Shown: piece after piece, positions 3,974 through 7,767 of the stretch
How the letters are laid out: each line of letters starts with the position of its first letter
Position numbering within the stretch: the stretch's first letter is position 1
Assembly (NCBI GenBank): GCA_050015075.1
Contig: JBEKCB010000010.1
Coordinates: 65,096-129,095, forward strand
Length of the DNA: 64,000 bases
DNA from: Candidatus Brocadiia bacterium
Lineage (GTDB): Bacteria; Planctomycetota; Brocadiia; CAIUPP01
Reading direction: 5' to 3'
The notes under the pieces: model-generated
Told to the model about the DNA's origin: nothing
Database searches by the model: none
What the model saw: only the letters and a program-made list of their open reading frames with translations
Program-made: the position numbers and the translations under genes

Positions 3974-4693
3974 CTATCTGCCTGAGAAGGAACGGTAGTG
4001 GCGAACCAGTTCGGGGTACTTCGCCAAGGCTTCGCTCCCCTTGGACGTGACCGCGTACAGCCCTCGACCGACGCGACAAAACCAGCCGTAGACGTTTCTT
4101 GACAGGATGGAGAGCGTCTTGGGCCCGGTCCCGAGCGCGCGCAGTTGCCGAGGCTTCATCTCACCGCAGTCGGCGAGGTAACAGGCGATCTGGATCGCGT
4201 TCTCACGGTACGCCGTGACGAGCGGTCGCCGGGTGCTGCCGCCGAGGTTGAAGTCCCCTGAGCGCCGGCCGATTTCCTCGAGGACCGTTCGCCGCGCGCT
4301 GCGCCGCTTTCTTCGCTCGAAGGGCAACGGGTGGAAGACCACCTCCACCGGCGGCCTGCCCGGCTTGAGCGACACCAAGATCAGCCCCAGTTCCAGCCGC
4401 CGCAGCACGCGGAACACCCCGCGCATCTGCCACATCCACTTCGCGTGGTTCGGCGGGCGCGGCACGGCCAGATAGACGGAGTCGGTCATCTGCTGTCGCC
4501 GCACACCCTGGGCCAGGAGCGCCAAGTTCAGCGCCAGTTTCATCTCGATCACGATCAGGTCGTCGCCCTTCACTGCCGCGATGTCGCAGTGCTTCACCTC
4601 ACCACGGACAGTGTATCCCTGCGCCGTCAGGTACGCGTGCAACAACGGGTAGAGGTCCGTCTCCACCGGTTTCGTTTTGGCTCTGCGCGGCAT
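3974..4693 (-). CDS. DUF2161-like PD-(D/E)xK fold protein
   Basis: ETDLY...GEVKHCD...IEMK motif, NLGGS, TAYRE and NVYGWF segments. Confidence 0.8.
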   Translation of the reverse strand: MPRRAKTKPVETDLYPLLHAYLTAQGYTVRGEVKHCDIAAVKGDDLIVIEMKLALNLALLAQGVRRQQMTDSVYLAVPRPPNHAKWMWQMRGVFRVLRRLELGLILVSLKPGRPPVEVVFHPLPFERRKRRSARRTVLEEIGRRSGDFNLGGSTRRPLVTAYRENAIQIACYLADCGEMKPRQLRALGTGPKTLSILSRNVYGWFCRVGRGLYAVTSKGSEALAKYPELVRHYRSFSGR

Positions 4694-4729
4694 GGATCTC
4701 TCTCTGCAAGGGGCGAGAGTCCCTCTGGC

Positions 4730-4906
4730 CTATGACCGCTGTTTCGGAACGGCGCGTGCCGCTATGATGCCCAGCACTGCGCCTGCAATAGCCCCTGACC
4801 AGGGGCTGGCGATGCACGGTCAGCCCAGCCCCGCACACTTTCCGAAGTACCCGATGAGGCCGCCGGCAGCGGCTCCTATGACAGCCCCGACGATGTGTCT
4901 CAACAT
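4730..4906 (-). CDS. Putative selenoprotein; small two-TM membrane protein (DUF6132-like) with Sec at codon 29
   Basis: Manual translation MLRHIVGAVIGAAAGGLIGYFGKCAGLG-U-PCIASPWSGAIAGAVLGIIAARAVPKQRS*. AGGAG RBS upstream, in-frame TGA at 4820-4822, SECIS-like hairpin just downstream, TAG at 4730-4732. Confidence 0.8.
4790..4807 (-). promoter_or_regulatory. Bacterial SECIS-like hairpin
   Basis: mRNA AGCCCCU-GGUC-AGGGGCU: perfect 7-bp stem with a GGUC loop starting 19 nt after the UGA. A lower stem CC(G)UGCA/UGCAGG is possible. Confidence 0.75.
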
Positions 4907-5017
4907 GATGCGCGCTCCTGCAGCTCGGGCGGCTGGATTCGGGCTACGGCGCCTGCGCGGTCGCGCGCAGCATAACCTTGGCGCCGAGACCGGTCAAGCT
5001 CCGTCCGGGAATTTCGC

Positions 5018-5046
5018 TTGACTCCACCCCATGAGCGGACTAGACT
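5018..5046 (+). promoter_or_regulatory. Sigma-70 promoter for the Mo-hydroxylase genes
   Basis: TTGACT-N17-TAGACT. Confidence 0.65.
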
Positions 5047-5122
5047 TTTGGATGGGTCAACTACTGTTCCGGGTGTCGGCGCCTCCCAGTTGCGATGGGC
5101 TCTGTCAACAAGGTGGACCGAG

Positions 5123-5599
5123 ATGGAACCAATCTCTTTCACGCTCAATGGCAAGCCCGTAACCGTCACTACAGACGGCGAGAGGATGCTCCTGTGGGTT
5201 TTGCGGGGCGACCTGGGCCTCACCGGGACCAAGTACGGCTGCGGCGAGGGCTACTGCGGGGCGTGTACCGTCCTCGTGAACAAGACGGCCGTCCGCTCGT
5301 GCCAATACCCGCTGCGAAACGCCGCCGGGAAAGAGGTCGTCACGATTGAGGGTTTGGCCAAGGACGGGAAGCTGAACGCGCTCCAGGAAGCCTTCGTCGA
5401 ACAGGACGCCCTCCAGTGCGGCTACTGTACGCCGGGCATGATCCTCAATGCGTACAGCCTGCTGCTGAGCAACGCTCGGCCTTCCCGGGAACAGATTGTC
5501 GAGACCATGGAAGGAAATCTCTGTCGCTGCGGGGCGCATGTCCGCATCATCCAGGCGATCCAGTCCGCGAGTGAGAAGATGGGAGGAGTGGCCGGATGA
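5123..5599 (+). CDS. (2Fe-2S)-binding small subunit, CoxS/CutS/IorA family
   Basis: GTKYGCGEGYCGAC, QCGYCTPG and NLCRCG motifs; start placed at MEPISF. Confidence 0.93.
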   Translation: MEPISFTLNGKPVTVTTDGERMLLWVLRGDLGLTGTKYGCGEGYCGACTVLVNKTAVRSCQYPLRNAAGKEVVTIEGLAKDGKLNALQEAFVEQDALQCGYCTPGMILNAYSLLLSNARPSREQIVETMEGNLCRCGAHVRIIQAIQSASEKMGGVAG

Positions 5600-7767
5600 A
5601 CGAAGATGAAATCATGGAGTGCGATTTCCGCGACACGGTCACTCCGGGCCTAATCAGCCGCCGGGCCTTCCTGAAGGGGGTGGGCGGCGGGATCATCATC
5701 CTGATTTCCCTTGACATCCCCTCCGTCCTGGCGGCGGAAGCGGGCAGGAGGGAACAGGCGACCGATTTCAACGCGTACCTCAGGATTGGACCGGACGGCC
5801 GGGTCAGTTGCTTCTCGGGCAAGATTGAGATGGGGCAGGGAATCATCACCTCTCTGGCCCAGATGCTGGCCGATGAACTGGACGTGAGCGTGGAATCGGT
5901 GGACATGGTCATGGGAGACACGGCGCTCTGTCCATGGGATATGGGCACGTTCGGGTCCATGAGCACCCGTTTCTTCGGGCCGGCCCTCCGGGCGGCCGCG
6001 GCGGAAGCCAGGGTGGTCTTGATCGAACTGGCGGCCGAGCGTCTCGGCGTGCCGAAGGAGCGCTTGCAGACAAAGAACGGCGTGGTATTCGACAAGACGC
6101 AGGAGAGGACGCGGGTCACCTACGCGGAACTCGCCGGAGGCAAGCCGATCGCGCGGCACCTTACGGGGAAGGCCGTCCTGAAAGCCGCATCCGAGTTCAT
6201 GGTGATGGGCAAGCCCATGCTGCGAATGGACTCCCGGGTCAAGGTCACTGGAGAAGCCAAGTATGCGGCCGACATCCGCCTGCCCGGCATGCTGTACGCC
6301 AGGGTCCTCAGGCCCACCGCCCACGGCGCGAAGTTGACCAGCGTTGACACCGCTGCAGCCGAAGCCATGGAAGGCGTCCAGGTGGTCAAGGACGGCGACC
6401 TGATCGCCGTCCTTCACAAGGACTTCGATGCCGCAGGGAAGGCGCTGGGCGCGATCAAGGCCCAGTTCGACGTGCCCAAGGCCGAGGTGGACGATGTGAC
6501 CATCTTCGACCATCTTGTCAAAGGCGCGGGGGAGCCTAACGTTCTGGCCCAGGGGGGCGACATCGCGGAGGGGCAGAAGCTCGCCGAGGCCACGGTCGAG
6601 GCAACCTACCTGAACAGCTATGTCGCCCATGCCCCCATGGAGCCTCACAGCGCGGTGGCGCAGATCGAAGGGGACAAGGCGACAGTCTGGGCGTCCACTC
6701 AAACGCCCTTCCCGCTTCAGGGCCAGGTGGCCCAGGCCATCGGACTTTCGGCGGAGAACGTCCGCGTCATCACCCCGTTCCTGGGTGGAGGATTTGGAGG
6801 GAAGAGCCGCGGTCAGCAAGCCATTGAGGCGGCCAAGTTGGCGAAGCTGGTCGGGAAGCCCGTCCAAGTCGCCTGGACGCGCGCGGAGGAGTTCTTCTAC
6901 GACTCGTTCAGGCCGGCCGCCGTCGTCAAGATCAGGTCGGGGACGGCCGGGTCCGGGGCTATCGTGCTGTGGGACTACGGCGTCTATTTCGCCGGCGAGC
7001 GCGGCGCGCAACAGTTCTACAACATCCCGCACCATCGCACGGCGTCCTATTCGAAGTGGAGCGGTGAGGGCGGCGCCCATCCATTCGCCACCGGCCCCTG
7101 GCGCGCGCCGGCCAATAATACCAATACCTTCGCCAGGGAGTCGCAGATTGACGCCATGGCGGCCAAAGTGGGCATGGATCCCGTGGCGTTCCGATTGCAG
7201 AACCTGACCGACGAGAGGATGGTGAGAGTCCTCAAGGCGGCGGCCGAGGCGTTCGGCTGGACCCCGGCAAAAGCGCCCAGCGGCCGCGGCTTTGGCGTCG
7301 CTTGCGGCACCGACGCGGGCTCGTACGTGGCCTCCATGGCGGAGGTCCAGGTGGACAAGAAGACGGGGCACGTCCAGGTAAAGCGCGTGGTCTGCGTCCA
7401 AGACATGGGCTTGGTGATAAACCCCGAGGGCGCGAGATTGCAGATGGAAGGCGGTGTCACCATGGGCCTCGGTTATGCGCTGGCCGAGGAAATCCATTTC
7501 AAAGGGGGCCGGATCAAGGACCTGAATTTCGACACCTATGAACTGCCTCGTTTCCCCGGGGTGCCGCAGATCAAGACGGTGCTCGTGCCGGCGGACGACC
7601 TGCCTCCTCAGGGAGGCGGGGAACCGGCGATCATCTGCATGGGCGGCCTGGTCGCCAACGCCATCCACGATGCGACCGGCGTCAGGCTGTTCCAACTCCC
7701 TATGACGGAAGCGCGCCTCCTCAAGGCGCTGGCCGCGCGCACCGGCCAGCCTGCCTTTGTCGCCTGA
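5596..7767 (+). CDS. Xanthine dehydrogenase-family molybdopterin subunit, IorB-like, with Tat motif
   Basis: SRRAFLK Tat motif; EMGQG, HAPMEP, LGGGFGGK, QMEGG and GGGEP motifs; ATGA overlap with the small subunit. Confidence 0.92.
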   Translation: MNEDEIMECDFRDTVTPGLISRRAFLKGVGGGIIILISLDIPSVLAAEAGRREQATDFNAYLRIGPDGRVSCFSGKIEMGQGIITSLAQMLADELDVSVESVDMVMGDTALCPWDMGTFGSMSTRFFGPALRAAAAEARVVLIELAAERLGVPKERLQTKNGVVFDKTQERTRVTYAELAGGKPIARHLTGKAVLKAASEFMVMGKPMLRMDSRVKVTGEAKYAADIRLPGMLYARVLRPTAHGAKLTSVDTAAAEAMEGVQVVKDGDLIAVLHKDFDAAGKALGAIKAQFDVPKAEVDDVTIFDHLVKGAGEPNVLAQGGDIAEGQKLAEATVEATYLNSYVAHAPMEPHSAVAQIEGDKATVWASTQTPFPLQGQVAQAIGLSAENVRVITPFLGGGFGGKSRGQQAIEAAKLAKLVGKPVQVAWTRAEEFFYDSFRPAAVVKIRSGTAGSGAIVLWDYGVYFAGERGAQQFYNIPHHRTASYSKWSGEGGAHPFATGPWRAPANNTNTFARESQIDAMAAKVGMDPVAFRLQNLTDERMVRVLKAAAEAFGWTPAKAPSGRGFGVACGTDAGSYVASMAEVQVDKKTGHVQVKRVVCVQDMGLVINPEGARLQMEGGVTMGLGYALAEEIHFKGGRIKDLNFDTYELPRFPGVPQIKTVLVPADDLPPQGGGEPAIICMGGLVANAIHDATGVRLFQLPMTEARLLKALAARTGQPAFVA

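Follow-up and report, generated by a model that had tools for sequence, protein, structure and literature searches.

Within a 64,000-nucleotide stretch of DNA from a Candidatus Brocadiia bacterium (assembly GCA_050015075.1, contig JBEKCB010000010.1, positions 65,096 to 129,095 of the forward strand; this whole stretch is called the window below), a small gene on the minus strand at positions 4730-4906 is interrupted by an in-frame TGA, at which ordinary gene calling cuts the 58-codon gene short. We have little doubt, on the comparative sequence evidence, that this is a real selenoprotein gene, and its product is most likely a membrane protein of two helices joined by a loop that contains selenocysteine (Sec). 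The read-through product, obtained by translating 4730-4906 of the minus strand, is MLRHIVGAVIGAAAGGLIGYFGKCAGLG-U-PCIASPWSGAIAGAVLGIIAARAVPKQRS, a member of the DUF6132 family, for which no function is known to us. The whole reading that we favour, a selenoprotein gene whose TGA is read through by means of a selenocysteine insertion sequence (SECIS) to yield a DUF6132 membrane hairpin with a Cys-x4-Sec redox centre, also appears very likely to be right.

An earlier note on this DNA, made from the letters alone, had described an AGGAG sequence and an ATG that open a 58-codon frame, with a loop between two helices that reads KCAGLG-TGA-PCIASPW. Every one of these sequence details was verified on the minus strand, and the TGA at 4820-4822 is the sole internal stop of the frame. 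The features of the gene, in the direction in which it is read, are the following.

4915..4919, minus strand: AGGAG, Shine-Dalgarno-like, read from the sequence, 8 nt before the ATG at 4904-4906.
4730..4906, minus strand: open reading frame (ORF) of 58 codons plus a TAG at 4730-4732, from the translation and the match to Pfam PF19628.
4841..4894, minus strand: predicted first glycine-zipper helix, about residues 5-22 (AlphaFold2 helix 2-25; weak glycine-zipper Pfam matches, all below cut-offs).
4835..4837, minus strand: TGT codon of Cys24, the first position of C-x4-C/U (column 20 of alignment A1; Cys in 149 of 150 representatives).
4820..4822, minus strand: in-frame TGA, codon 29, putatively read as selenocysteine and aligned with the second Cys (column 25 of alignment A1).
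4790..4807, minus strand: SECIS-like hairpin AGCCCCU-GGUC-AGGGGCU, inside the codons for S-P-W-S-G-A, from folding and comparison.
4757..4801, minus strand: predicted second glycine-zipper helix, about residues 36-50, made only with TGA read-through (AlphaFold2 helix 35-52; Pfam match to residue 50).

The resemblance to DUF6132 that had been suggested is a firm one. With C in place of U, the window protein matches the Pfam model PF19628 at 41 bits (cut-off 23.2, E 1.5e-10) over residues 2-50, which correspond to model positions 6-54 of 60 and lie on both sides of the TGA. A search with PF19628 at the level of the genome likewise returns the window gene, at 35.4 bits, with one TGA inside. The proposed layout of two helices, the second of them after the TGA, agrees with an AlphaFold2 model built from a 137-row alignment, which places helices at residues 2-25 and 35-52 and a loop of low confidence at 26-34, at a modest overall confidence (mean predicted local distance difference test score 64.3). 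The model for glycine-zipper two-helix proteins (Glycine zipper 2TM, PF05433) scores 21.3 bits, under its gathering cut-off of 24.2; no NCBIfam model comes near its cut-off against the window protein (the best reaches 15.5 bits against 99); a profile search of the PDB gave no solved structure for any relative; and a word-indexed protein search with the window protein gave no matches. Two plus-strand ORFs and one minus-strand ORF overlap the small gene, and none of the three matches Pfam.

Selenocysteine and cysteine share one position in DUF6132

One argument for selenocysteine comes from the position of the TGA in the family. DUF6132 matches are held by 10 of the 132 genomes of the class and by 17 genomes of a 401-genome sample of the phylum, and nine of the 21 matches in the phylum sample contain exactly one TGA, which in all nine takes the place of the second Cys of C-x4-C-P. 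Column 25, which holds this second Cys or Sec, is invariant in the 27-row alignment A1, and the aligned second Cys is the only fully invariant column in alignment A4.

The search was extended by scanning one genome per species with a degenerate DNA pattern for the Sec form. Among the 119 pattern matches listed, 47 are family members by alignment profile, with the TGA at column 25. A further 71 failed the family profile and were dropped, most of them being one recurring off-frame actinomycete stretch, and L130 (14.5 bits) was dropped as not family-like. In many actinomycete records among the pattern matches (L070-L188), an off-frame stretch of a conserved gene fits the Sec-form pattern by chance, for example as ...CCPGRRU.RARSPWPGS.... 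The phylum-sample matches and the pattern matches listed make up a set of 56 TGA forms (55 distinct stretches), a number that is a lower bound on Sec forms. The TGA stands at the second Cys of C-x4-C in 56 of 56, which bears out the proposal that Sec occupies the second Cys position of DUF6132, and nine of ten TGA forms sampled from other genomes pass the Pfam DUF6132 cut-off. By record titles, the Sec forms span at least nine phyla: Planctomycetota, Chloroflexota (Dehalococcoidia), Nitrospirota, Thermodesulfobacteriota (Geobacteraceae, Desulfuromonadales) and Kiritimatiellota, as well as Lentisphaerota, Verrucomicrobiota, Latescibacterota and Cloacimonadota.

The same column was then read in proteins that are translated without interruption. 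A profile search of 1.84 billion protein representatives gave 1292 relatives at E up to 0.001, and the column aligned with Sec is Cys in 149 of the best 150 of these representatives. The earlier note had asked whether homologues carry some other residue, such as Trp, at this position, and a single Trp case, P0047, was found. In this public predicted protein the Trp stands exactly at the Sec column within the Sec-form context GKCSGST-W-GMTANPWSG. Because the surrounding sequence is typical of Sec forms, the Trp is probably the TGA of a Sec gene that a gene caller read as Trp. The pairing of an in-frame UGA with Cys, one of the criteria for a bacterial selenoprotein, is found in this family.

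Sec forms and Cys forms share two glycine-zipper helices and a loop motif, which in the Cys forms reads G-x-C-x2-G-x-C-P-x-T-x-N/S-P-W/Y. They differ in that Sec replaces the second Cys and is mostly followed by Gly rather than Pro, and in that the N-P-Y/W-R-G of the Cys forms is S-P-W-S-G in the Sec forms. Only part of the motif first proposed for the window protein, a C-x4-U-P-C with three chalcogen residues, can be kept. The C-x4-U portion is conserved, whereas Pro follows U in a minority of Sec forms (most have Gly) and Cys31 is present in only one of the 55 distinct Sec-form stretches. The paralogue in the same genome has Leu at that position, and Cys31 recurs only in a remnant copy (L042, described below) that is outside the 55. 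Since Cys31 is private to the window copy, the conserved motif is C-x4-U.

A tree of 122 domain sequences over 48 columns was built with every third of the 150 representatives, leaving out the other two thirds, L067 (a duplicate of L133) and the Sec/Cys column itself. The Sec/Cys label needs at least three changes on this tree, against 40.3 in shuffles, and most forks are unresolved. Because the Sec set was partly chosen by residue pattern, we limit our reading of the tree to clustering: Sec forms cluster in a few groups of a weakly resolved tree. The window copy belongs to a small group in which Pro is retained after U; it has Cys forms as neighbours and is separate from a large G-S-T-U-G group.

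A covarying hairpin follows the TGA

The hairpin AGCCCCU-GGUC-AGGGGCU begins 12 nt after the TGA, and its GGUC apical loop begins 19 nt after the UGA, both as originally read. The SECIS loop of Escherichia coli fdhF contains GGUC. Like SECIS elements of the fdhF type, the window hairpin is a stem-loop directly 3' of the UGA within the coding region, with a small apical loop that opens G-G-U. It is unlike them in having a short stem (6-7 bp) whose bases also encode a conserved peptide (S/N-P-W-S-G-A), which makes protein and RNA constraints overlap, and its binding of SelB is putative. A 2026 selenoprotein catalogue (PMC13188914) quotes a bacterial SECIS consensus in which the first two positions of the loop contain a G, frequently with G or U next, and the loop lies 16-37 nt from the UGA. 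With a loop that reads G, G, U and starts 19 nt from the UGA, the window hairpin fits this consensus as far as sequence and predicted fold can tell.

Comparison of the 55 distinct Sec stretches indicates that the hairpin is conserved. Over the seven pairs, 85.2% of cells are formed, against 36.6-62.1% when the partners are slid by 1-3 columns, and 0 of 500 shuffles match the observed pairing or covariation score. Two pairs covary: pair 17-32 is GC in 36 stretches, AU in 7 and GU in 2, and pair 18-31 is CG in 33, UG in 11 and UA in 8. The GGUC apical loop occurs in 35 of the 55. A conserved hairpin downstream of the TGA had been expected if the reading were correct, and the six inner pairs are indeed all present in 37 of the 55 Sec forms and in none of 18 Cys forms, although this control set is small and comes from one phylum. 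Synonymous sites in the stem are frozen as well. Pro31 is encoded by CCC in 50 of 55 Sec forms and Gly34 by GGG in 49, while the next glycine in the same genes, Gly38, is GGG in only four. Third-position entropy falls to 0.93 for the codons of the hairpin, compared with 1.83 elsewhere in the downstream frame.

Several aspects of these data weigh against a SECIS. The folding energy of the hairpin, -20.2 kcal/mol (z -1.28), is reached by 20 of 200 dinucleotide shuffles of the locus DNA (64% G+C); this is not beyond chance, and the significance of the hairpin therefore derives only from comparison with relatives. The scan pattern fixed C19, C20, U22, G23, G24, G28 and G29, seven stem or loop bases, so that part of the pairing is present by construction, although this does not apply to the outer pairs or the wobble positions. 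Codons for P-W-x-G by themselves favour a short stem, and Cys forms with PW.G make 2-4 of the seven pairs. The limited Cys control set should be counted here too. Finally, one Cys form (L057, with TGT, from genome G318) has a strong 9-bp hairpin, unlike the SECIS, at the same place (806-853, -14.2 kcal/mol), which could be due to chance or could be the trace of a switch from Sec to Cys.

The frame remains coding beyond the TGA

One competing explanation is that the TGA is a true stop, that the product is a 28-residue peptide with one helix, and that the downstream similarity and hairpin come from an RNA element such as a terminator or attenuator, or from a 3' half in decay. No stop codon is commoner in the window than TGA, which ends 17 of the 32 long ORFs, a usage from which we conclude that the genome does not reassign TGA. 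An ordinary stop would also sit well with a hairpin that is not significant by itself and with a word-indexed search of the protein collection that gave no protein with the window sequence. What this explanation leaves unaccounted for is the character of the sequence after the TGA. Entropies at the three codon positions are 1.04/0.73/1.73 upstream and 1.35/0.75/1.83 downstream outside the hairpin, so that variation is of the coding type, with third positions most variable on both sides, and the downstream codons match the second half of the Pfam model. This agrees with the conservation past the TGA on which the original proposal depended. The frame is open through the second helix in 56 of 56 TGA forms, continuing for 23 to 143 codons past the TGA (median 29), 149 of 150 relatives have Cys at the aligned position, and no U run follows the hairpin. 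Given these observations, we consider a true stop very improbable.

A sequencing error at 4820-4822 had also been raised as a concern. The stretch is present in 22 DNA runs of peat metagenomes, and independent metagenome contigs of three DNA runs cover 4798-5100 and keep the TGA, with no difference at 4820-4822 at the level of contigs. A contig from an RNA library (X24), 90% alike, also keeps the TGA, although it offers no proof that the window copy is transcribed. Over the hairpin and second-helix stretch (window 4773-4814), the summed depth of the contigs from the peat metagenome runs rises about ten-fold and contigs break, which fits several near-identical copies or relatives that share this stretch.

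The source genome encodes selenocysteine machinery and a second TGA copy

A genome without the means to insert selenocysteine would have been difficult to reconcile with the selenoprotein reading, and the presence of these genes was one of the checks first proposed. All of the components sought are present in the source genome. Its tRNA-Sec scores 60.9 bits (cut-off 47) and is called by ARAGORN as tRNA-SeC with anticodon tca, and selA (533 bits), selB (340 bits) and selD (365 bits) all score above curated cut-offs. The four genes are located on contig C13:3632-17124, within about 14 kb. A Sec-containing formate dehydrogenase alpha subunit was also sought in the source genome, as an internal SECIS control, and the one match is sub-threshold and has no internal stop.

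A paralogue on contig C17 of the source genome is 79% identical to the window copy, with a TGA at the same codon and an identical hairpin. Only these two copies in the genome pass the DUF6132 cut-off, both carry the TGA, and there is no Cys copy. Comparison of C17:23107-23280 with window 3974-4906 shows that the selenoprotein gene and the start of the next gene (MPRRAK..., a DUF2161 gene in the window) were duplicated together; the C17 copy has a GTG start, and its TAG comes two codons earlier than that of the window copy. A third, partial copy lies on contig C26 (L042, about 1521-1608). It keeps TGA-PCASSPWE-AIAGAVLGIIVAS, and its hairpin of 6 bp (GCCUCC...GGAGGC) differs from that of the window copy. 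A first helix cannot be recognised in it, there are stops upstream, and it is probably a 3' remnant.

These copies bear on the possibility that the window gene is a pseudogene or an assembly error in which a Cys codon (TGC or TGT) became TGA by mutation or miscalling. One base change would be enough, and the assembly is of the metagenome type (66 contigs, 93.6% complete). An accident of this kind would nevertheless have to explain a TGA that recurs, with the hairpin, in the paralogue and 55 other TGA forms from nine phyla in all, that is kept in contigs from three DNA runs, and that occurs in a genome with no Cys copy to act as a substitute, where only the two TGA copies pass the cut-off. We regard it as extremely improbable.

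A small membrane redox protein is the favoured function

From the known bacterial mechanism of Sec insertion, we propose a role as bacterial SECIS for the hairpin that starts 12 nt beyond the UGA: SelB carrying Sec-tRNA(Sec) would bind it and deliver selenocysteine at codon 29. The product would be a 58-residue DUF6132 helical hairpin, with two glycine-zipper helices in the membrane and a loop carrying Cys24 and Sec29. The Cys-x4-Sec pair would then be the functional centre, most likely cycling between a selenenylsulfide and the selenol and thiol forms, and the protein may serve as a small membrane-bound thiol/selenol-disulfide redox element that partners thioredoxin-fold proteins.

Support for redox chemistry comes from the relatives. 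Among the best 150 of the 1292 representatives, 149 match DUF6132, 46 Thioredoxin, 20 AhpC-TSA and 14 Redoxin, and no domain other than those of the thioredoxin fold is a recurrent fusion partner. Because relatives are fused to thioredoxin-fold domains, we read the Cys-x4-Cys/Sec pair as a redox-active centre. Fusions are a trait of Cys forms, including about a third of the representatives (46 of 150) and 11 of 18 Cys forms from genomes, whereas Sec forms stand alone in 55 of 56 cases, with L059 as the sole Sec form that has a thioredoxin-type fusion. If the gene is real, the balance tilts towards a redox role.

The earlier note had left open whether the protein would be a redox or a metal-binding selenopeptide, and of these the redox half gains support from the thioredoxin fusions of the Cys forms. 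In the metal version, the same selenoprotein would use the Cys/Sec pair of its loop to bind or pass a soft metal or metalloid (Hg, As, Cu, Cd, Se, Te), in the manner of the paired cysteines in small membrane proteins that transport mercury. Such a role could suit a membrane hairpin of two helices whose loop has a selenol five residues from a thiol, next to Pro and Gly, and the window copy offers a third Cys, although Cys31 is not conserved. The stand-alone forms have no conserved redox partner gene next to them; equally, no metal-resistance or transport genes recur in the neighbourhoods of the Sec forms. There is a precedent in the putative mercuric transport selenoprotein (PF02411, motif C/SxxU) listed in Table 1 of the 2026 catalogue (PMC13188914), which likewise is small and membrane-bound and pairs its Sec with Cys or Ser close to a membrane helix. 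The window protein is unrelated to it, with no Pfam match, at E up to 10, to PF02411, MerT or other metal families, and the C-x4-U spacing and the architecture differ. Given that the sole recurrent fusion partners in the family are thioredoxin-fold oxidoreductases (Thioredoxin in 46 of 150), we judge metal binding to be unlikely.

Topology was considered from the distribution of charge. Lysine plus arginine is more abundant in the tails than in the loop in 41 stand-alone Sec forms (the reverse in 7) and in 75 stand-alone Cys forms (the reverse in 4). By the positive-inside rule, stand-alone forms would most likely have the loop facing outward and both ends in the cytoplasm.

Not everything is as a redox selenoprotein of this kind would lead one to expect. 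The charge rule is close to even in fused forms (19 versus 16). The window protein itself is without a thioredoxin domain: its ORF stops eight residues past the second helix, and there is no C-terminal thioredoxin-fold domain with CxxC. Gene neighbourhoods compared at 55 Sec-form loci (L067 left out as a duplicate of L133) contain no neighbour gene common across phyla, and no copy of the gene is present in genome G001 of the same genus or G002 of the same family. Neighbours that do recur are specific to lineages, such as a DUF1451 zinc-ribbon gene in nine Desulfuromonadales-type loci, genes for Lrp/AsnC, a Na/Ca exchanger and a SEC-C motif protein, and AccA with a pseudouridine synthase in Geobacter-type Sec loci. 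A predicted-complex run that paired the DUF6132 half of a natural fusion (L043) with its thioredoxin half scored 0.01 against a mark of 0.32, and was not used as evidence.

Membrane-held cysteine pairs that work with thioredoxin-fold domains are known from relays of the DsbD/CcdA type, which have six or more helices. The window protein shares the idea of such a pairing, but it has two predicted helices and no sequence relation to these relays was found; that it moves electrons across the membrane is speculation. Glycine-zipper families such as PF05433 offer a likeness of another sort in their G-x3-G-x3-G helices, to which the window match is weak, and they are without a Cys/Sec loop. In its most ambitious form, our proposal would make DUF6132 a minimal membrane redox relay, with an outer-face Cys-x4-Cys/Sec pair trading electrons with thioredoxin-fold domains, fused in a third of the family and otherwise separate, and with the Sec branch as a high-reactivity version in anaerobes of many phyla. 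We consider this distinctly unlikely. If it were true, the window protein would be the smallest known membrane selenoprotein and would bring thiol redox chemistry to the membrane, or across it, by a new and very simple means.

An apparently unreported branch of the prokaryotic selenoproteome

As far as could be checked, the Sec branch of DUF6132 is unreported. Full-text literature searches gave nothing relevant on DUF6132, nor on a selenoprotein with a glycine zipper. Table 1 of the 2026 catalogue, which covers 119 selenoprotein families and subfamilies, lists neither PF19628 nor a C-x4-U motif, nor any membrane hairpin comparable to this one (PMC13188914). In that table the families of the Haft papers and of deep-Sep each carry an NCBIfam or Pfam identifier, none of which matches the window protein or 10 other Sec forms, and the DUF6132 part of those 10 forms has no NCBIfam match at all; the NCBIfam models covered include Haft's families and 'hypothetical protein DG/DW/DF'. 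BSepDB is described as compiled from previously reported families. The supplementary BSepDB and deep-Sep tables could list the family under another name.

Judged by its sequences, this branch is a new selenoprotein family, and one of ordinary type, with a Sec/Cys pair, a redox-type motif and what looks to be a canonical bacterial SECIS. It changes nothing in what is known of Sec insertion and introduces no new principle. It would, however, be a widespread addition to the prokaryotic selenoproteome, extending to at least nine phyla by record titles. Annotation routinely misses selenoprotein genes, since it takes UGA for a stop, and in this instance the 28-codon stump that remains is too short for most gene callers. 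Since there is no NCBIfam model for the family, current pipelines keep missing the DUF6132 Sec forms.

The branch may also provide the first functional handle on DUF6132. Because evolution swaps the invariant second Cys for Sec, this residue would be of the catalytic type, and the thioredoxin fusions point to the likely chemistry. In addition, the strict RNA signal that overlaps the conserved peptide S-P-W-S-G appears to be a clean natural example of dual coding.

Surroundings of the gene

The neighbours of the small gene in the window provide no functional clue to it. An Rfam search over the locus gave only a sub-threshold match to the sucC RNA (20 bits versus 50) at 4658-4736. Downstream of the gene lies a DUF2161 nuclease-like gene, and upstream, in divergent orientation, are 2Fe-2S and molybdopterin oxidoreductase genes. 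The latter, at 5123-7764 on the plus strand, encode a 2Fe-2S subunit (Fer2, Fer2_2) together with a large subunit of the xanthine dehydrogenase / aldehyde oxidase type that binds molybdopterin.

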